Origin: Planctomycetota bacterium
GTDB taxonomy: Bacteria > Planctomycetota > JAJSAM01 > JAJVHW01
DNA length: 64,000 nt
Direction of reading: 5' to 3'
Assembly (NCBI GenBank): GCA_965248445.1
Contig: CBDFJG010000001.1
Location: forward strand, 576,001-640,000
The notes under the pieces are model-generated. The model made no database searches, had not been told where the DNA came from, and saw only the letters and a program-made list of their open reading frames with translations. Every line of letters begins with the position of its first letter. The first letter of the stretch is position 1. The translations under genes were made by a program, and so were the position numbers. This document shows, piece after piece, positions 2,262 to 17,015 of this stretch.

Positions 2262-2394
2262 AACTCATCGAACGCACGAGCTTCCCGACGAAGTCCGCGG
2301 GTTCGGCTTCGAGTTGCTCGCGGTCGCCGTGCGTCTTGTACTCGCGCACACCCCGCATCAGTGCCTGCGCGATGTCGAGTCCGGCCTCACCGAA
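2262..2394 (-). pseudogene. Internal fragment of an IS66-family transposase
   Basis: Manual translation FGEAGLDIAQALMRGVREYKTHGDREQL aligns with FGKQAVRLAQAVMRAQRHFGEHGDRDRM and FGKKGVEIAGAVMRVHRGFRGHGDRTRL of the IS66 transposases in this window. Confidence 0.65.
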
Positions 2395-2395
2395 G

Positions 2396-3090
2396 CATGC
2401 ATATCCGGTTAATGACCGCGCCCACTACATCTTGTGCTAGAAGGGCAGCGGGCTTGCAGGCTCGTCGGCGTAGACCTGTTCGTACGTGCGCGGCGGCGTC
2501 TTCGCCGCGATGCCGAGGACCGTCTGGAACGCTGCCTGCGGCGTGCGTCTCCTGTTGAACCGGAACGTGAACTCGTCGAGATACCGCTGCAGGTGCTTCT
2601 CCGAGACCCGGCCGTGGTGCGTGCCTACGAGCCAGGTCTTGAGGTTGGAGAAGACCAGGTGGTGCAGGTGCCTCAGGACGTCCGCCTGCGCCGCGCCCAT
2701 CATCGTGGACTCGATCCCGTGCTCGTAGCCGAGTTTCTCGACTGCGTCGTAGGTCTCGTGGCCGTCGGTCACGACGAGCGCCCCACGCTCGATGCTGTCC
2801 TTGACGAACGCCAGCAGGTGCGGCTTCGATGAGGCCGGCACGTGGCGCAGCCGGATGCGTCCGGGCTGTGTGCCTCTCTTCGTCGGACGCACCTCGACCG
2901 CGCCGACCACGACGGCCTTGTCTGCCGCGGTGCGCTCCTCTCGGCCTCGAAACGGCGCTCCGATCAGCGCCTCGTCGACCTCGACGACGCCGAACAACTG
3001 CGCGCGCTCCGGCGCGACCATCGCAGATCGCAGTTTCTGGAGCATCTGGTACGCGGTCTCGTAGCGGGTCAGACCGAGCTGTCGCTGGAG
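2396..3090 (-). mobile_element. Truncated IS1595-family element (3' part and right TIR only)
   Basis: Near-identical reverse complement of ~7319-8008. TIR CATGCATATCCGGTTAATGACCG at 2396. Transposase C-terminus ends at 2437. Homology stops abruptly at 3090. Confidence 0.9.
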
Positions 3091-4400
3091 CCAGGGTCGA
3101 GCGGAACCTGTTCAGCGGCCAGCGGTCCGACGACCCCGGCGTCGACATCGACGGGCCGAACGCCGTGGTGCAAAAGAACCGGTTCGTCTACGGCCTCGGC
3201 GTCGGCATCCAGGTCGATGCCGAGAACGGTGGAACGGCCACGGTCTGCAAGAATACGGTCGATTCGATGGCGGGCGACTCCTACATCCTGGTGGAGAACG
3301 CGGCGGGCCCCAGGGTCCTGAAGAACGTCTTCAAGAACGCTTACATTGGCGATAGCTACGACCACGTCATCGACCTCCAGTCCTGTGACGACGCCCTAGT
3401 CTCCGGCAACAAGATACTGACGATGAACTACTCCATCGAGAGGGGGATCAACGTCGCGGGCGAACGGGCGACGGTAACGAAGAACTGCATCGAGAACGTG
3501 AATGGCTACTACTACGACCTGTATTGCATCTACGTGCAGGGGAACGACGCCGCGATCAGCCGCAACAAGATCCGGATCTGCGGCGCCGGGGAGGAATCCG
3601 ACACGTATGCGATCTACGTTTCCGGGAACACAGCGAGCGTCACGCGAAACGCGATCAACGACATAGCTGGTGGCGGCGACGAGATCTTCGGGGTCTATAT
3701 CGACGGCGACGACGGCTCCATCGACGGCAACCGGATCAGCCACCTGAACGAAGAGTACACGTACGCCATCTACTACACCGGCCACAGGGCCCGGATCGTC
3801 AAGAACAGGATCGCGCACGTGATGGCTGACGGGGACATCTACGTCCGCGGCGATGACTTCCTGATCGAGAACAACACCGTCAGGGACGGAGCGTACTACT
3901 GCACCGGTATCTACACGCGCGGATCCGCCACGATGCTCGGGGCGGCGGTGATCCAGCGGAACTCACTGAGCTTTCTCGGGTCGGACGGCATCGACCACGG
4001 AGGCAACGGGGTGGTCATCCGCGACAACAAGCTGAACCACCTGGCGGGGTTCGGGGTGATTGCGGACGGAAACGACAACGTGCTGATCGGTAACAGTGTG
4101 TCGGGCACGTACACGGCCGCTTTCCACATCGATGGCAACGACAACAGCGTGACGGGTTGTGCCGCCAGGGACAGCGACGGAGACGGGTTCAGGATCCAGG
4201 GCAACAACAACACGCTGGAGAACTGCACGGCGTCCAACTGCGCCGCCGAGGGCCTCGACAACAGCGGCACCGACACCAGCGCGATGAACTGCCGGTTCAC
4301 CGGCTCCCGAATCGACTACGCCGGCAACAACAACATGATCGACGACACCGGAACGACGTTCGGGACCGGAAGTGCCGCGACCGCGCCCGAGATCAACTGA
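3091..4400 (+). pseudogene. 5'-truncated right-handed parallel beta-helix repeat protein
   Basis: Repeated IxxNxI / GIYVxG units. The frame starts at the IS1595 breakpoint with no start codon or signal peptide of its own. Confidence 0.75.
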
Positions 4401-4524
4401 CCTCGGGACCATCGAGATCGGGACACCCGCGCGGACGGGTCCTGCGGATACCGAGATGGGATGAGATCCCGTCTTCTCGACCAAGGTTCTTAGAGCGTTG
4501 TTGGCGCTGCCCGCCTCGCCTGCG

Positions 4525-6056
4525 GTACCCGTTCAGGGTATGACGATCCGCGGCCTCAGCGCGTGATCGGGAGCGCGACGAGAGCCGGCGGCGAGCGGTT
4601 GTGCGCGAGTGCCGCGCTGACGTCTGCGAGGTAATCGAAGACGCTCTCGCCACGCTGGCGGAGCGTGGCGGTGACGGTCAGGATGCGCTCGACGAAGCGG
4701 AGTCCGCGCTCGCTCTGACTTCCGTGCGTTGCGCGTCTCCACAGGACCGGCTTGCGCACCGCGCGCTCAGCGGCGTTGTTCGTCGGGGAGACGCCAGGGA
4801 CGTCGGCGAAGGTCCACAGAGCCTCCGCTCGGTCGAGCAGATGCCGAGTCGTTCCGCGTACTCGGCGGTGCTTGCTGTCTGCGCCGCGCACGAGCAGCGT
4901 CAGGAGTCGGTCCCATGTGAGACGCAGCTCACGCCGCATGCGGTCGCGGTCCCCGTGCTCGCCGAAGTGACGCTGAGCTCGCATGACAGCCTGGGCGAGA
5001 CGCACGGCCTGCTTGCCGAAGCGCCGGCCGCCGCGCGAGCCCTCGGCCAGCGCTCGAAAGTCCCTCTCGAGATGCGCCCAGCAGATCTGGCGGCGCTCGG
5101 TGGGATGCTGGTCGTAAGCGCCCATACGGTCGGTCACGAGGACGCCCCTGAAGCGCTTGCCCACGAGTCGCCGCATGGCCTTGGCGCTCCTGCGCCGATC
5201 GATACGATGGACCGTGGCGTGCTCACAGACCGCGCTCCACAGCCAATGCAGCGTGCCACGACGCGACCACGGTGTCTCGTCTACATAGGCGACGCTGCTC
5301 GTGCGTACGGCCCCGAGGGCCTCGATGTGCGCTGAGGAGATGGCTCCCGACACCCGCTCCTCGATCGCACTGACCGTGCCCGGTGACATCGAGACGCCGA
5401 TGACGTCACGCAACAGACGACTGGTCTCGCGCCGCGACAGGCGGAAGACGCCGACCAGAGCCGCGGTGAGCGCACAGAGTCGCGGGCCGAAGGGACTCGC
5501 CGTCACACCGCTTGGCAGCGAGGCAGTGGACGTGGCGCCACAGTCCGTGCACCGTGCCCGGTGCAACCGGTGCTCGGTCACCTGGATCAGCCGTGGCGGG
5601 ACCTCGAAGACCTGCTGGCGTGTCGGGGCGCGATCGATCGGGACGAGCACGTCGCTCCCACACGCGCTGCACTCGCGCGGGCGGTGGTCCTCTACGCCAT
5701 CGACCTCGGACTCGTCCACGAGCTTGCGCGTCGCCCCTTTGTGGCCGGGCTGCGCACCCTGGCGCTTGTCCGACGGCGGCTTGCGCCGCCGCCGCTTCTT
5801 GGACCACGACGGATCCGAGGACGGTGGGCGCGAGGAGGTGCGGGAGTCCCGGCGAAGACGGCTCTCGAGATCGTCGATCCGTGCCGCCTGCCGCTCGATC
5901 ACCTCCGCCTGCTCGGCAATCGTCTCGTCCCGAGCGTCCAGACGACGGGTCAGGCGCTCGACCAGATCACGCAGCTCATCGGTGCCCACATCCGATTCAT
6001 CGACCGAACGGAAAGCGATCTGGATCCGAGCTCAGAACCAAGGGCTGAACGGGTAC
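4525..6056 (-). mobile_element. IS66-family single-ORF (ISBst12-like) element, copy 1
   Basis: TIRs GTACCCGTTCAG / CTGAACGGGTAC. 8-bp target duplication CGCCTGCG at 4517-4524 and 6057-6064. Length 1532 bp. Confidence 0.95.
4556..5989 (-). CDS. IS66-family transposase
   Basis: N-terminal coiled coil, SSRPPSSD, GAQPGH, two CxxC pairs, DET, LVTD, QICWAHLER and TNNAAER motifs. Confidence 0.93.
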   Translation of the reverse strand: MGTDELRDLVERLTRRLDARDETIAEQAEVIERQAARIDDLESRLRRDSRTSSRPPSSDPSWSKKRRRRKPPSDKRQGAQPGHKGATRKLVDESEVDGVEDHRPRECSACGSDVLVPIDRAPTRQQVFEVPPRLIQVTEHRLHRARCTDCGATSTASLPSGVTASPFGPRLCALTAALVGVFRLSRRETSRLLRDVIGVSMSPGTVSAIEERVSGAISSAHIEALGAVRTSSVAYVDETPWSRRGTLHWLWSAVCEHATVHRIDRRRSAKAMRRLVGKRFRGVLVTDRMGAYDQHPTERRQICWAHLERDFRALAEGSRGGRRFGKQAVRLAQAVMRAQRHFGEHGDRDRMRRELRLTWDRLLTLLVRGADSKHRRVRGTTRHLLDRAEALWTFADVPGVSPTNNAAERAVRKPVLWRRATHGSQSERGLRFVERILTVTATLRQRGESVFDYLADVSAALAHNRSPPALVALPITR

Positions 6057-6967
6057 CGCCTGCGCGCGGGGACCGCGCTCGGCGGGCCGCGAGGACAGGT
6101 TGGGTGGTGCGACGCCTTCGCCTGTCGGCTCGGGCATGAATCCGGGGCGGCGGAGCGCGCGCGAGTTCGCTCGGAAGACTCGTGGCTCATGCGGGCACCT
6201 GCGTGGCCGACGTGGCCACGGGTGTGGGCCGGGGGACGAAGGGCTGTTTGTTTCGAGCCACCCAGTGGACGGCGACCAGGAGCTTTCGCATGGACGCGAC
6301 GAGGGCGACCTTCGGGAGCTTGCCCTGGGACCGAAGCCGTTCGTAGAAGGCGCGCAGCCAGGGGTTCCTGCGCACCGCGGTCAGGACGGGCATCCACAGG
6401 GCCCTGCGCAGCCGGGCGTGCCCGATGCGGGTGATGGCGGCGCGTTGGCCCTGGTTGCGTCCGGACTGCTTGAGTGCCGGGACGACCCCGATGTATGACG
6501 CCAGCGCCTTGGCGTCGCGGAAACGAGTGATGTCGCCCAGCTCCGCGACGAGCCGCGCGGCGGTCTGTGGCCCGATGCCGTCGATGGTCGTGAGGAGCTT
6601 GCCGACCTCGTGGTGCTCCAGGGTTCCCCCGATCAGCTTCTCCAAGTCGCGAAGGCGCCGGCGCAGCAAGTCCAGATCCTCGCAGGCGTACCGGACCTGA
6701 GTGCGATAGGCCTCGGCGTGGTGGCGGCCCACGGACGACTTGGCTGCACGGACCAGGTCTTGGGCAAGCTGCCGCCCGACTCGGTGACGTCCGTCGTAAC
6801 GGAGCGCGGCGAGTCGCTTGACCGAGACACCCACAAAGGCCTGCGCGGTGGGATGGCGGTTGAGCAGCGCCGTGGCGAGTTCGCTGTCGAGGGTGCGGAC
6901 GTGGCGTGTGAACTCCGGGAAACCCAGGTCCACCAAGCGGTGAAGCCGGCGGACCCGGTCTCCAAAG

Positions 6968-8008
6968 CATGCATATCCGGTTGACGACCGTGACCCCAAG
7001 GGGTAGTGTCTCGGACGCATGCCGAAGCCGGGCTACCCTCGCAACATCGTGGAGTTCACGGAGCAGTTCGCGACGGAAGAGCAGTGCCTCGAGTACCTCG
7101 TGCAGTGTCGTTGGCCCGACGGGTTCCGCTGCCGCCGGTGCGGCGGCAAGAAGTACTGGCCCCGTCCAGATCGAAGAGCGATGCGGTGCGTGGGCTGCGA
7201 CCTGATCACGTCGGTCACCGCGGGCACAGTGCTGCATCGCAGCCGGCTGCCGCTGAAGTCCTGGATGTGGGCCGCGTACTTGATGACGACGGACAAGCGG
7301 GGCGTCTCTGCGCTCGCACTCCAGCGACAGCTCGGTCTGACCCGCTACGAGACCGCGTACCAGATGCTCCAGAAACTGCGATCTGCGATGGTCGCGCCGG
7401 AGCGCGCGCAGTTGTTCGGCGTCGTCGAGGTCGACGAGGCGCTGATCGGAGCGCCGTTTCGAGGCCGAGAGGAGCGCACCGCGGCAGACAAGGCCGTCGT
7501 GGTCGGCGCGGTCGAGGTGCGTCCGACGAAGAGAGGCACACAGCCCGGACGCATCCGGCTGCGCCACGTGCCGGCCTCATCGAAGCCGCACCTGCTGGCG
7601 TTCGTCAAGGACAGCATCGAGCGTGGGGCGCTCGTCGTGACCGACGGCCACGAGACCTACGACGCAGTCGAGAAACTCGGCTACGAGCACGGGATCGAGT
7701 CCACGATGATGGGCGCGGCGCAGGCGGACGTCCTGAGGCACCTGCACCTGGTCTTCTCCAACCTCAAGACCTGGCTCGTAGGCACGCACCACGGCCGGGT
7801 CTCGAAGAAGCACCTGCAGCGGTATCTCGACGAGTTCACGTTCCGGTTCAACAGGAGACGCACGCCGCAGGCAGCGTTCCAGACGGTCCTCGGCATCGCG
7901 GCGAAGACGCCGCCGCACGTACGAACAGGTCTACGCCGACGAGCCTGCAAGCCCGCTGCCCTTCTAGCACAAGATGTAGTGGGCGCGGTCATTAACCGGA
8001 TATGCATG
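6968..8008 (+). mobile_element. IS1595-family element, full length
   Basis: TIRs CATGCATATCCGGTTGACGACCG / CGGTCATTAACCGGATATGCATG. 8-bp duplication CTCCAAAG at 6960-6967 and 8009-8016 (6 bp if the TIR is drawn 1 bp longer). Confidence 0.93.
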
Positions 8009-8038
8009 CTCCAAAGTCCTGGACCACGCGATCCCTGA
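7019..8038 (+). CDS. IS1595-family transposase with a frameshifted extreme C-terminus
   Basis: Zinc ribbon CRRC...CVGC, VEVDE, VTDG and YLDEFTFRFNRR. A 2-bp deletion near 7915 relative to the partial copy makes the ORF run through the TIR. Confidence 0.9.
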   Translation: MPKPGYPRNIVEFTEQFATEEQCLEYLVQCRWPDGFRCRRCGGKKYWPRPDRRAMRCVGCDLITSVTAGTVLHRSRLPLKSWMWAAYLMTTDKRGVSALALQRQLGLTRYETAYQMLQKLRSAMVAPERAQLFGVVEVDEALIGAPFRGREERTAADKAVVVGAVEVRPTKRGTQPGRIRLRHVPASSKPHLLAFVKDSIERGALVVTDGHETYDAVEKLGYEHGIESTMMGAAQADVLRHLHLVFSNLKTWLVGTHHGRVSKKHLQRYLDEFTFRFNRRRTPQAAFQTVLGIAAKTPPHVRTGLRRRACKPAALLAQDVVGAVINRICMLQSPGPRDP

Positions 8039-8479
8039 GTCTGACGAGCTCGCGCAGTTCCTCGGTGCCGGAGTCGGGCAGCCGCGTGGGCTCCGGGCGT
8101 TTCTGGCGAGCGAACCGGGCGAGCCCGAGGGCGTCGATGGCATCGGTCTTGGTCCGCTGCAGGTCCTCGCCGGCGAAGCGGTGGGTCCGCAGCGGATTGA
8201 TCAGCACCATGGCGAAACCGCGCGAGAGAAGCTCCGCCGCCAAGTTGCGCCAGTAGTGCCCGGTCGCCTCCAAGGCCACGAGCACGTCTCGAGGGACGCC
8301 GAGCAACTCGAAGAGCTCCTCGTAGCCCTGTGCGTCCTCACCGAAGGCGGTGGGCCGCACCAGGATCTCTTCGTCCTCGTCCATCACCGCCACGACGTGC
8401 TTCTTCGAAGCGATGTCTATCCCCGCGTAGCGCATCGTGCACCTCCTGTCATGCGACGAGGAGGACCGGGAGCCTCGGA

Positions 8480-8665
8480 GCCGGCGACCGTACTCATCCT
8501 TGTTCATGCGAGGACGCGCGTCTGCGCGCCTCAGGATCCCGTCCGAGCGTGGGTCGCCGGTCGAGGGCGCCAATCTCATCTCCGAGGACTGCGCCTCGTG
8601 AAGGCCGCGGCGACCCTCTCCCGGCTCTCGTCGATCTCTGTCCACCGTAGGTCGCGGGCATGAGT
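8480..8665 (-). ncRNA. Bridge RNA of the IS621-like element (ends approximate)
   Basis: Two stem / internal loop / stem modules. Target loop carries CGGCCTTC and GATGAG; donor loop carries ACGGGATC and ACAAG. All four match the element's flanks or ends. Confidence 0.85.
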
Positions 8666-8760
8666 GGACGTCATACAAGAAGGCCGGTCCCTGCCTCGGT
8701 GTAACCCGTAGCGGTTTCCAGAGGCGCTGACGGGCTTGCGAGCCCGAGGAGGAACCGGCT

Positions 8761-9804
8761 ATGGCAAAGGCTACACGTTTCGTGATCGGGATGGACCTGG
8801 GCGACCGCGTGGTGCCTGTGTGTGTGCTGGACCGCAAGACGGGCGAGATCGTGGGCGAAGGGCGCGTCGCGACGACGCGTGCTCGCCTGACGGAGTTCCT
8901 CGGCGAGATCGAGCGCTCGAAGGTGGTGATGGAGAGCGGGACGCACTCGCCGTGGATCAGCCGCCTCGCCGAGGGTCTTGGTCACGACGTCATCGTGGCC
9001 GATGCGCGTCGGCTGCGCGCGGTGTGGGACTCGCCCAAGAAGAGTGACCGCCGCGACGCGCTGGTTCTGGCGCAACTGGGGGCCGGGCACCCAGGGCTCC
9101 TTCATCCGGTGTCTCACCGGAGCGAGCGCGCACAGACCCACATGGTCGTGCTCCGAGCGCGCGAGCGTGTGGTCGACGCGCGTACGAAGTTGGTCAATGC
9201 CGCGCGGGGCTCGGTGAAGTCGCTCGGGTACCGATTGCCCGCTTGCTCCGCTCCGAGCTTCCATCGCAAGGCACGCGAGGCGGTGCCGGAAACCCTCGTG
9301 GACGCCCTGGCCCCGTTGTTCGACGCGATCGCAGCGTTGACGGAGAGCATCGCGCGCTACGACCGCGAAGTCGAGCGTCTCGGCCGCGACGCGTATCCGG
9401 TGACACGACGCCTTCGCGAGGTACCCGGCTGCGGTCCCGTCACCGCGCTCGCCTACGTGCTCGTCGTCCACGACCCAGAGCGCTTCTCGCGCAATCGCGA
9501 CGTGGGCGCGTACGTCGGTCTCGTCCCGCGCCAGGACCAGTCGGGCAAGATCGATCGCCAACTCAGGATCACGAAGTGCGGCGACCGGATGCTCCGCCGG
9601 CTGCTCGTGCAGTGCGCGCACTACGTGCTCGGACCACACGGGCCCGACAGCGACCTGAGACGCTGGGGTCTGGAGCTGGCGCAACGGGGCGGGAAGAACG
9701 CGAAGAAACGGGCGACCGTCGCGGTCGCCCGCAAGCTCGCCGTGCTCTTCCACGCTCTGTGGATGAAGGACCGCGCGTACGAGCCGCTCGCTCGAGCGGC
9801 GTGA
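8761..9804 (+). CDS. IS110-family (IS1111 group) recombinase, intact
   Basis: GMDLG, MESG, KSDRRDA (DEDD), VPGCGP, GLVPRQDQSG and AVARKLA. RBS GAGGAGG upstream. Confidence 0.93.
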   Translation: MAKATRFVIGMDLGDRVVPVCVLDRKTGEIVGEGRVATTRARLTEFLGEIERSKVVMESGTHSPWISRLAEGLGHDVIVADARRLRAVWDSPKKSDRRDALVLAQLGAGHPGLLHPVSHRSERAQTHMVVLRARERVVDARTKLVNAARGSVKSLGYRLPACSAPSFHRKAREAVPETLVDALAPLFDAIAALTESIARYDREVERLGRDAYPVTRRLREVPGCGPVTALAYVLVVHDPERFSRNRDVGAYVGLVPRQDQSGKIDRQLRITKCGDRMLRRLLVQCAHYVLGPHGPDSDLRRWGLELAQRGGKNAKKRATVAVARKLAVLFHALWMKDRAYEPLARAA

Positions 9805-9869
9805 TGACCGACTGAACACCACGAACAACACGGGAGTCTGATCGACCGAGCAACGCGCCCACCCGGGCG

Positions 9870-10080
9870 ATGCCCATCTCCCAACTCGAAGGCGCGACGA
9901 CTGCGGTGGCTGAACGGGCCCGGCCCCGGCCGAGGCCGCGTAACTGATGGCAGCGTCGCCCTCGAGCGGATGCCTCAACGTGCACCGGGTCCAAACGACC
10001 CCCTGACGAGTGCGGATGGATGCGTGCAGAGGGAGCCGGCATCGGCTGCGGTGGACGGATCGCCAAGTCGATCCGACGCC
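9870..10080 (+). ncRNA. Candidate bridge/seek RNA in the 3' non-coding end of the IS1111-type element (ends approximate)
   Basis: Outer stem GCGACG-A-CTGC (9894-9904) / GCAGCGTCGC (9950-9959) encloses loop segments TGGCTGAACG and GTAACTG around a GGCC-rich inner hairpin. Confidence 0.7.
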
Positions 10081-10086
10081 TTGACA
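10081..10086 (+). promoter_or_regulatory. Outward-facing -35 box in the IS1111 right end (half of a circle-junction promoter)
   Basis: Perfect TTGACA just inside the right sTIR, as known for IS1111 elements. The matching -10 across the junction is poor. Confidence 0.55.
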
Positions 10087-10105
10087 CAAGAGGCCTTCTC
10101 ATGGA

Positions 10106-11632
10106 CGTTCAGCCATTGTGTCTGAGCCCGTATCCAGATCTCCGAGCGGGTTGACGATGAACACCATGTGGGCAAGGACGACCTCCGCGAGTTGATCGAG
10201 CGGCAGTCGCGGCGTCTCGCTGCCCAGGACGAGAAGATCGCTGAGCAGCAGCGTGTCATCGAGGGGCAGCAGGAGGAGATCGCAGATCTTCGGAACCGCC
10301 TGAAGCGGGATTCGCGCAACTCGTCGCGGCCGCCGTCCTCGGACGCGCCGTGGTCCAAGCGTCGGCGCCGGCGAAAGCCCCCGTCGGACAAGAAGCAGGG
10401 CGGCCAGCTGGGTCACGAGGGCAGGACGCGGCGGCTGGTGGACGAGGACGAGGTCGATGACGTCGAGGACCACCGCCCGAGCGAGTGCTCGAGCTGCGGG
10501 GGCAAGGAGCTCGAGCCGCTGGCGCGTCGTCCGCACCGCCACCAGGTGTGGGAGATCCCGCGGGTGCTGGTCCCGGTGACCGAGCATCGTCTTCACCGTG
10601 CGCGCTGCCGGGAGTGCGGCGAGGTGGTGGCGGCGGCGTTGCCCGAGGGCGTCACCAAGAGCGCCTTGGGCCCGCGGCTGAGCGCGCTTGCGGCATCCTT
10701 GAGCGGCGTCTACCGCGTGAGCCGCCGCGAGGTCTCCCGGCTTCTCTCGGAGGTCTTCGGTGTGACGATGTCGCCCGGCACCGTGAGCGCCATCGAGGGA
10801 CGGCTCGGTGAAGGGCTCTCGCTGCCGCACATCCAGGCGCTTGGCGCGGTGCGCACGAGCTCGGTGGCCAACGTGGACGAGACGCCGTGGAGCGAACGTG
10901 GCGAGCTGCGCTGGCTCTGGACCGCGGTGGCCGAAGGCGTTACCGCGCACCGCATCGACTCCCGCCGCAACGCGGCCGCGATGAAGCGCCTGATCGGCCG
11001 GCGCTATCGCGGGGTGCTGGTGACCGACCGCATGGGCGCCTACGACAAGCACCCGCTCAAGAGGCGCCAGCTCTGCTGGGCCCACTTGGAGCGCGACTTC
11101 CGCGCTCTCGCCGAAGGGCCGCGGGGCGGATGGGTCTTCGGCAAGAAGGGCGTCGAGATCGCGGGGGCCGTGATGCGAGTGCACCGCGGCTTCCGCGGCC
11201 ACGGCGACCGCACCCGGCTCGCGCGCCAGCTCCGCGATCCCAAGCGCCGGCTCCGCCGCCTGCTCGAACGCGGGGCACGCGCCAAGCACTGTCCGGTCAG
11301 GGGCATGTCCAAGCACCTGCTGGCGCGCTTCGATGCGCTCTTCACCTTCGCCGAGGTCCCCGACGTCGACCCTACGAACAACGCCGCCGAACGCGCGGTC
11401 CGCAAGCCGGTGCTCTGGCGCAAGGGCTGCTACGGCAGCCAGTCCGCTCGCGGCGAACGCTTCGTCGAGCGAGTGCTCACGGCCACCGCGACGCTGCGCC
11501 GCCGGGGGGGCAAGTCTTCGACTTCCTCGCCGACTCGCTCGCCGCGCACGTCTCCGGCGCCGACCCACCCGTCCTCGTCAGCCTGCCGATCCCGCGCTGA
11601 GGATCAGGGCCCCCGAAGGGCTGAACGGGTAC
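10106..11632 (+). mobile_element. Second IS66-family (ISBst12-like) element, with its left TIR cut by the IS1111 element
   Basis: Left TIR remnant CGTTCAGCC at 10106. Right TIR GGCTGAACGGGTAC ends at 11632. No target duplication recoverable. Confidence 0.88.
10168..11600 (+). pseudogene. IS66-family transposase with a frameshift in a G7 run
   Basis: Paralog of 4556-5989. One extra G at 11504-11510 restores ...RRRGGQVFDFLADSLAAHVSGADPPVLVSLPIPR*. Confidence 0.85.
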
Positions 11633-11730
11633 GTCGAGGTCGCCCGCAATGCGATCACCGGCACTCCGGCTCCTCGGCTCGTCCCTCAGGCCGCCTCGGC
11701 CTGAGGCTGGATACCCACGTGAACGGGTAC
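11633..11730 (+). mobile_element. 3' remnant of another IS66-family element
   Basis: VEVARNAITGTPAPRLVPQAASA* resembles the IS66 C-termini in this window. It is followed by TIR-like GTGAACGGGTAC ending at 11730. Confidence 0.6.
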
Positions 11731-12061
11731 TCGCGCTCTACCGGAGACTCCAGGTGACTCGCCCGTTCTCTGCCCCCTGTTCCAGTATGACGACCGACAT
11801 CAATGGCGACTTCAGTCGGACGTCTCGACTGTCCACAATCTCACCGCCCGCGATCGTCTGTGACACCGTCTCCTTGTCCAGCGTGTTGAAGTAGACGGTC
11901 AACCGCGAACCAGCCGGTTCGGGAGCGTCATTCCGTACGACGACCGCCCGTCCTCGTCGAGGGAGGTTCGGGGTCGATCTGATCCAGATCCGGAACGTCT
12001 TCGCGCGCGACAGCGCTGAGGTGGTCGTGATGTCGCGGGCGGTGTCGGGCGTTCCATCCAC

Positions 12062-16938: not shown

Positions 16939-17015
16939 TGGCACGCCCGTGAGGAGTCGAACCTCAAACCTCCTGATCCGTAGTCAGGTGCTCTATCCAA
17001 TTGAGCTACGGGCGC
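16939..17015 (-). tRNA. tRNA-Arg(ACG)
   Basis: GCGCCCGTAGCTCAATTGGATAGAGCACCTGACTACGGATCAGGAGGTTTGAGGTTCGACTCCTCACGGGCGTGCCA: 77-nt cloverleaf, anticodon ACG, encoded CCA. Confidence 0.97.

Follow-up and report, generated by a model that had tools for sequence, protein, structure and literature searches.

Organisation of the locus

The window, by which we mean the whole stretch of 64,000 nucleotides that was analysed, corresponds to C1:576001-640000 of a planctomycete genome of 5.4 Mb and 69% G+C, assembled in four contigs (C1-C4). Its first 14 kb are stacked insertion sequences, containing three IS66-family genes, one IS1595-family gene, two IS110-family genes and one DDE_Tnp_1_4 fragment. 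The genome as a whole is extremely rich in insertion sequences, with 215 termini of the type GTAnC[CT]GTTCA, at least four IS66 subfamilies and several cases of one element nested within another. In a scan of the whole window against Rfam at gathering thresholds, the sole match was a tRNA gene at 16942-17015 on the minus strand, and no match to a bridge-RNA family was found. Two elements are considered here: element B, whose right end abuts an IS66-family element, and element A, which interrupts the left end of B. The features from the transposase gene of B to the adjoining IS66-family element are the following.

8761-9804, plus strand: transposase of element B, 347 amino acids, intact, with PF01548 (E 1.3e-15) and PF02371 (E 1.5e-22)
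9894-9959, plus strand: predicted target-binding stem-loop, with outer stem 9894-9904/9950-9959 and inner stem 9917-9920/9934-9937 (RNAalifold, 20 elements)
9907-9916, plus strand: right target guide TGGCTGAACG on the 5' loop strand, the reverse complement of core CG plus right flank TTCAGCCA
9940-9946, plus strand: left target guide GTAAC plus core TG on the 3' loop strand, its position and rule taken from relatives
9965-10027, plus strand: predicted donor-binding loop with stem 9982-9986/10008-10013, from the alignment compared with the element ends
10081-10086, plus strand: TTGACA, a box resembling a -35 element, five bases before the right subterminal repeat, with a TTGAC-like box in the same place in relatives
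10092-10102, plus strand: right subterminal inverted repeat of B, GGCCTTCTCAT, conserved in relatives and extended by GGA to 10105 (10092-10105)
10106-11730, plus strand: IS66var, a single-copy IS66-family element with its transposase at 10168-11757 and a left repeat that starts at base 6 (CGTTCAGCCATTG)

Element B and its relatives

The transposase of B has DEDD_Tnp_IS110 (RuvC-like) and Transposase_20 domains and scores 224.8 bits against NF033542, 'IS110 family RNA-guided transposase', for which the cut-off is 140. A search for related loci with the single protein gave two partial relatives, and whole-genome searches, which returned relatives of 37-56% identity, were used instead. The phylum-wide search gave a match to B in 25 of 401 genomes, this one included, and among the genomes searched the relatives were confined to Planctomycetota.

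The ends of these relatives are conserved. On the left they read flank-AG-ATGGG-ATGAGAAGGCC and on the right GGCCTTCTCAT-GGA-AG-flank, which gives a subterminal inverted repeat (ATGAGAAGGCC / GGCCTTCTCAT) of 11 bp with terminal extensions of seven bases on the left (AGATGGG) and three on the right (GGA); both ends were recognised in 20 of the 30 rows from other genomes. The same extensions are found in the window, GGA at 10103-10105 and AGATGGG at 4454-4460. The original prediction had assumed that B ends on the right at 10105, and the right repeat at 10092-10102 followed by the three-base GGA places the end at exactly that position. The non-coding stretch 3' of the transposase gene is 301 nt long (9805-10105), while about 90 nt lie upstream of the gene once element A is subtracted. 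A junction promoter is known for the IS1111 family, according to the part of PMC11187229 used here. The core dinucleotide is YG for B and AG in most relatives.

Taken together, the DEDD and Transposase_20 domains, the match to NF033542, the 11-bp subterminal repeat, the seven- and three-base extensions, the long downstream non-coding region and the strand order of the guides described below identify B as an IS1111-type insertion sequence, that is, a member of the IS1111 group of the IS110 family.

A predicted guide RNA downstream of the B transposase

The 3' non-coding regions of 20 elements, that of the window and 19 from other genomes, were aligned; three elements in which the anchors or the ends could not be located (L026, L035 and L037) were excluded, as were rows with no recognisable right end. 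RNAalifold predicted an outer stem, an internal loop shut by a short inner stem, and then a second stem downstream. The limits originally proposed for a guide loop, 9894-9959, are exactly those of the conserved outer stem. Compensatory changes were present in 12 of the 19 pairs, and 93.4% of cells were paired compared with 84.5% in shuffles, none of 500 shuffles equalling the real value and partner-slid controls reaching 24-42%. The single-sequence fold was modestly better than shuffles (z = -2.42). This comparison confirms 9894-9959 as the target-binding stem-loop of the predicted 3' bridge/seek RNA of B.

Directly after the left guide, ATG at 9947-9949 repeats the first bases of the left end of B. 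The donor-binding loop is organised in a corresponding way, its 5' strand carrying CCTC at 9973-9976, which reads the left-end bases ATGAG, and its 3' strand carrying ATGGA-TG at 10016-10022, which repeats the right end plus core. In the relatives this 3' strand is ATGGA-AG, ATAGA-AG or ATAAA-AG, and the ATGG, ATAG or ATAA variant agrees with the right end in all 20 rows. The 5' four-mer tracks the left end (CCCC with ATGGG, CCTC or TCTC with ATGAG, CTCC with ATGGA, TTCT with AGAAT), agreeing in four of the five variant elements whose left end is known; the exception is L036.

Between the donor loop and the terminal hairpin, about 9 of 16 bases in the block 10042-10056 are different in the C3 copy of B (window region compared with C3:483005-483049, L012/L016). 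The two copies, which are 98.9% identical overall, also differ at the two bases 10078-10079 ahead of TTGACA. The block was considered as a further guide and rejected, its flank matches by eye being five to six bases long and within chance.

Agreement between guides and flanking sequences

It had been noted that TGGCTGAACG (9907-9916) and the right flank at 10106-10115 are exact reverse complements of each other and that the opposite loop segment at 9940-9946 reads GTAACTG, and both statements are confirmed from the sequence. The 10-mer CGTTCAGCCA occurs at just two places in the 64-kb window, where 0.15 are expected (100 shuffles, one of which reached two), and 28 times on both strands of the 5.4-Mb genome.

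The loop rule from which the target had been read holds in 19 relatives from other Planctomycetota genomes when cognate and non-cognate runs are compared. In these relatives the reverse complement of the 5' strand gives the core and the right flank; on the 3' strand, the left flank and core are repeated and the first bases of the element follow. Agreement was scored as the longest shared contiguous run. For right guides the mean cognate run was 6.5, with runs of at least 6 in 10 of 18 elements (9 of 17 without the window), compared with a non-cognate mean of 3.37 and runs of at least 6 in 2.3% of 304 pairs. Left guides gave a cognate mean of 5.69, with at least 6 in 11 of 16, compared with 3.35 and 3.75% of 240 non-cognate pairs. 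In the tabulation of the flanks of homologous copies, which had been suggested as a check on IS66-end targeting, each loop follows its own flanks, and IS66 ends do not flank the relatives from other genomes. The sites of four relatives (L004, L006, L014 and L021) look palindromic by eye, for example GGGGAC-AG-TCCCC and GGTGTC-AG-ACACC, which suggests that REP-like hairpins are the usual targets of the clade to which B belongs.

The predicted target and IS66-family termini

The claim that the guides of B are aimed at IS66 repeats was borne out, in that the site they specify, GTAAC-YG-TTCAGCCA, corresponds to the tip (first 15 bases) of IS66-family terminal repeats. At the core the left guide carries UG and the right guide CG, and wobble pairing (G-U/G-T) would permit either a CG or a TG core. 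The motif CTGAACG/CGTTCAG, which had been assigned to IS66 ends, is indeed part of IS66-type ends, as seen in the 215 GTAnC[CT]GTTCA termini of the genome. These include 97 with GTAACCGTTCACCCC, 35 with GTACCCGTTCAGGG and 47 of the TTCAGCC class, the last comprising GTACC-CG (39), GTACC-TG (6) and GTATC-CG (2). The local IS66 termini fall into the classes TTCAGCCA, TTCAGCCC, TTCAGGG and TTCACCCC, with a core of CG or TG.

Nowhere in the genome is there a site with zero or one mismatch to the ideal 15-mer. Sites with two mismatches number 145 within the genome, of which at least 139 are GTAnCCGTTCA termini, and none of these approximately 139 near-ideal IS66 termini is occupied by B. Either B has almost no activity or its target must agree more closely with the guides than these termini do. 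A shuffled-target control was too noisy to use, with a mean of 112 matches at three or fewer mismatches and a maximum of 592. None of the relatives of B in other genomes was found at an IS66 end, tblastn with two IS66 transposases matching loci of this genome only. The specificity for IS66 ends is therefore a local reprogramming and not a trait of the family.

Right junctions and the adjoining IS66-family element

In the window the junction reads right end-CG-TTCAGCCATTG and runs into IS66var. This element is assigned to the IS66 family by PF03050, PF13005 and PF20042 and by a score of 270.8 bits against NF033517. Its left repeat lacks the five-base tip GTAYC, and the repeat on the right is complete (GTACCCGTTCACGTG in reverse complement). 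The intact form, GTATC-CG-TTCAGGCATTG, is kept by a related element at C3:481707. Complete copies of the abundant IS66-family element of this genome are 1532 bp long, with one gene and 8-bp duplications, and we take the single-gene IS66 group to which the victim belongs to be ISBst12-like. The IS66 element at the junction had been described as having no target duplication, and no 8-bp duplication is detectable between 11731-11738 and the left side. The stretch 10076-10795 is spanned by contigs from four runs of one sample, so the junction between B and IS66var is not an artefact of this assembly. Neither a joint deleting B nor a circle junction was seen among the contigs of these four runs over 4300-11900, contigs being ill-suited to showing circle junctions.

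A second right junction is provided by a 114-bp fragment of the right end of B at C2:855560-855673, which is duplicated at C3:295648-295761; the surroundings of the two fragments are identical, and they were therefore counted as one junction. It reads right end-TG-TTCAGCCATTG and adjoins the 3' end of an IS66 transposase remnant. Both of the independent right junctions in the genome thus lie at the same position of an IS66 repeat and in the same orientation, at opposite ends of different elements.

The left junctions of the sister copies are more varied. At C4:88346 unique host DNA is followed by GTACC-TG and then by the left end of B, which is what the cut-off tip of an IS66 element would leave; the right side of this copy is lost behind an IS1595 insertion. 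We considered this as the original partner of the right junction in the window and rejected it, since the eight bases before the GTACC tip (CTTGAGGA) differ from the eight after the right repeat of IS66var (TCGCGCTC). Comparison of window 8800-9700 with C4:85540-84640 shows the C4:88346 copy to be a mosaic: its identity to the window copy is 100% up to about 8800, about 80-85% within the bulk of the transposase gene, and again about 96% from about 9700, a pattern suggestive of recombination or gene conversion among lineages of B.

The other two sister left junctions, C3:478461 and C4:1974290 (two of the four), lie in GGCGTTGG-TG, which is half of a 14-copy motif, GGCGTTGGTGCATGA, that is unrelated to IS66 and unmatched by the guides. 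On its opposite strand this motif supplies the start codon of open reading frames beginning MHQRR (for example, L015 at about 1795-1925), and it is these two copies, each of them B with A inside it (left flanks C3:478452 and C4:1974299), that are inserted in the motif. The C3 copy has no right subterminal repeat after TTGACA, and the C4:1974290 copy is truncated before the RNA. The expectation that other copies would also be flanked by TTCAGCC or IS66 ends is upheld as far as it could be examined, at the sole other right junction, that of C2/C3, and is qualified by the two left junctions in the unrelated motif. At all four B loci at least one side is rearranged or truncated, and none retains an intact pair of junctions. 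Two preprints, to the extent used here, may bear on these odd junctions: one reports half-match recombination by bridge recombinases (10.64898/2026.08.31.748434) and the other describes expanded IS110 loci with just one canonical boundary (10.64898/2026.08.14.744561).

The split left end of element B

The left end of B in the window is in two parts.

4456-4465, plus strand: detached IS1111-type left-end tip ATGGGATGAG, preceded by AG at 4454-4455, of a foreign type, the sister copies of B carrying ATGAGATGAG
8678-8760, plus strand: rest of the left end of B, with the second repeat half AAGGCC from 8680 and then the leader to the start codon, placed by comparison with the intact ends of relatives and with C4:1674420

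Element A splits the left subterminal repeat into 4461-4465 and 8680-8685. The left flank had been given as GATAC. This sequence is present at 4447-4451, an insertion in the left end having placed it 4.2 kb upstream of the transposase. The register used for it was off by two bases, the position corresponding to the core of relatives being AG at 4454-4455 and not CG at 4452-4453. In either register the left junction matches the left guide poorly.

The suspicion that the left side is rearranged proved well founded. Window positions 3090-4466, including the AG-ATGGGATGAG tip, duplicate C4:1675794-1674415, and the donor guide of B, CCTC, fits the ATGAG tip of three sister copies but not the ATGGG tip of the window. 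It follows that the outermost tip and its flank are from another element, probably acquired by recombination between copies. The C4 locus (L015, C4:1672400-1675400) has an uninterrupted IS1111-type left end at C4:1674420, with a leader of about 100 nt and no transposase, and this end follows a stretch of 1377 bp that is 99.6% identical to window 3090-4466. In the window a partial IS1595 copy (2394-3090) marks the left limit of this segment.

Element A within the left end of element B

The insertion that divides the left end of B is itself interrupted twice.

4466-8677, minus strand: element A, IS110-type, in the left subterminal repeat of B, with core CT on either side when read on its own strand
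4525-6056, minus strand: 1532-bp single-gene IS66-family copy nested in A, with an 8-bp duplication; the joint 4516 to 6057 is found in contigs of other copies
6968-8008, plus strand: IS1595-family element nested in the transposase gene of A, with an 8-bp duplication; joint 6959 to 8009
8573-8607, minus strand: predicted target-binding loop of the leader RNA of A, with left guide CGGCCTTC (8607 to 8600), a hairpin and right guide GAGATGAGAT (8582 to 8573)

The transposase of A is 399 amino acids long in intact copies, with PF01548 and PF02371 and a score of 254.9 bits against NF033542; in the window its gene is broken by the two nested insertions. A long upstream leader RNA and the core dinucleotide at both junctions, without a long subterminal repeat, make A a member of the IS110 group, and the left guide precedes the right guide as expected for that group. 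The leader is 241 nt long, with conserved stems around variable guide columns, and four relatives in other genomes (59-68% identity) have the same invariant stems.

All four copies of A in the genome are at the same point of a B left end, and the two guides of A together spell CGGCCTT-CT-CATCTC, which is the left end of B read on the strand of A. Across A and its four relatives the core is CT in five of five, cognate runs are 8, 3, 7, 5 and 5 on the left and 8, 7, 5, 7 and 8 on the right compared with non-cognate runs of mostly 2-4, and the donor guide tracks the right end in five of five. The guides of these elements track their own, unrelated flanks, an IS1111-type end being targeted only by the A of this genome; none of the A relatives in other genomes was in an IS1111 end, and no gene like that of A was found near the relatives of B within the available flanks.

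Discussion

The best explanation of these observations, to which we would give a probability of roughly 85%, is that 9894-9959 is the target loop of a bridge or seek RNA of B, that its guides read the tip of IS66 repeats, and that B landed in the left end of IS66var. This explanation draws on sequence and comparison, namely the structure of the RNA, the rule linking guides to flanks, the agreement with IS66 termini, the two right junctions at the same repeat position and the missing tip. If B follows the mechanism published for its family, its DEDD recombinase would bind the 3' RNA, the target loop would read the IS66 tip, the second loop (9965-10027) would likewise read the joined ends of B itself, and the recombinase would swap strands at the two-base core. 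B would then land between bases 5 and 8 of the IS66 repeat in one orientation, severing the five-base tip, and in the window it would have hit the left end of the single-copy element at 10106-11730. It is presumed here that the RNA is made and used, and the cutting of the repeat may disable or immobilise the IS66 element.

The strongest of the alternatives, which we nevertheless regard as unlikely, accepts the guides as real but holds that IS66 ends are not their proper target, which might for instance be the 14-copy motif, and that the IS66 junctions arose off-target, by half-matching or by later recombination. The two left junctions at GGCGTTGG-TG and the unoccupied state of the approximately 139 near-ideal IS66 termini would fit such a history, and half-match insertion by bridge recombinases has been reported in the preprint cited above (10.64898/2026.08.31.748434). 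The guides, however, misfit the motif by eye, agreeing at two of five bases plus the core in the left half and at none of eight in the right half, whereas the right guide and the IS66 flank agree at 10 of 10 positions in the window and at 9 of 10 in C2/C3, where the core pairing is a G-T wobble. The available right junctions, two in all, both lie at IS66 ends, and the original guides of the two copies in the motif are not readable, the C3 copy having no right end and the C4:1974290 copy being truncated before the RNA.

Less likely still is the reverse order of events, in which B already occupied the site when the IS66-family element moved in beside its right end, the complementarity being a coincidence or a preference of the IS66 element. 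The undetectable 8-bp duplication around IS66var is in keeping with this order, but an IS66 element transposing there would bring a complete repeat, and beside B exactly the five-base tip is absent; moreover, an identical break point is found in another IS66 remnant, at its opposite end, and the guide-flank rule holds in relatives with no IS66 nearby. The weakest proposal, that the complementarity is due to chance or that recognition is by protein only and the stem-loop is a terminator or other structural RNA, can point to the modest z-score of the single-sequence fold, but is very hard to sustain when the guide columns vary while the stems covary, the loop of each relative spells its own flanks and only 0.15 occurrences of the 10-mer are expected in the window.

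The locus represents a clean case of natural reprogramming of a bridge or seek RNA onto the ends of another transposon family, supported by comparative genomics, in a phylum with no prior study of such elements. The approximately 20 related elements with readable guides and flanks form a natural specificity table for this RNA scaffold. The nesting of A in B suggests that RNA-guided insertion sequences can home on the recognition sequences of one another, which bears on competition in genomes saturated with insertion sequences. One possible, if rather doubtful, extension is an RNA-programmed parasitism at three levels, with an IS1111-type guide retuned to an IS66 repeat and an IS110-type guide retuned in turn to the IS1111-type end (subterminal repeat plus tip) that is needed for donor recognition. 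On this reading, and if each hit disables its victim, guide RNAs would be natural weapons between transposons, evolving by simple reprogramming within one genome.

Comparison with known systems

In the parts of the published accounts used here, the IS1111-family members ISEc11, ISKpn4 and ISPa11 have subterminal repeats of 11-13 bp with left extensions of 7 bp and right extensions of 3 bp (Siddiquee et al. 2024, PMC11187229), the range for the IS1111 group being 7-17 bp (Durrant et al. 2024, PMC11208160). The IS1111-type seekRNA is described as a short RNA from the non-coding stretch after the transposase gene, in which the complement of the top strand comes before the match to the bottom strand, and natural reprogramming between IS1111 relatives is reported (PMC11187229). 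B resembles these elements in repeat length, extensions, downstream RNA region and strand order. It differs in its target, theirs not being the ends of other insertion sequences (IS66 has no mention in PMC11187229 as used here), and in that the case for B is made from sequence and covariation.

The bridge RNA of IS621 has two internal loops in which the left guide pairs with the bottom strand and the right guide with the top strand, the core being included in each, and IS1111-group RNAs lie in the right end (PMC11208160, in the sections used). B is like IS621 in having two loops with the same strand logic and a core in each pairing; it is unlike IS621 in that its RNA is at the 3' end, the strand order is reversed and the core is YG rather than CT. 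Element A, with its upstream leader RNA, its left guide first and its CT core, belongs to the same IS110 group as IS621.

The closest precedent for B is the pair IS4321/IS5075, which insert into the terminal repeats of Tn21-family transposons (PMC8269217, in the portion used here). These are IS1111-type elements with subterminal repeats, as B is, and they occupy one position, in one orientation, in the terminal repeat of another transposon family; similar sequences elsewhere can also be hit. B may show this pattern too: two of two independent right junctions share a repeat position and orientation and one left junction has a GTACC tip, but two further left junctions are at the other motif and no pair of junctions is intact. 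The victim of B, however, is a single-gene element of the IS66 family and not of the Tn3 family, and its host is a planctomycete; the transposase of B, found in Planctomycetota alone among the genomes searched, is probably only distantly related to that of IS5075. In the literature searched we came across no IS110-family element described as targeting IS66 ends or IS1111 ends, which is no proof of absence. B is a new example of a known mechanism, that of seek or bridge RNA, and probably of a known behaviour, and the more unusual and less expected part of the locus is the IS110-type guide of A aimed at an IS1111-type end.
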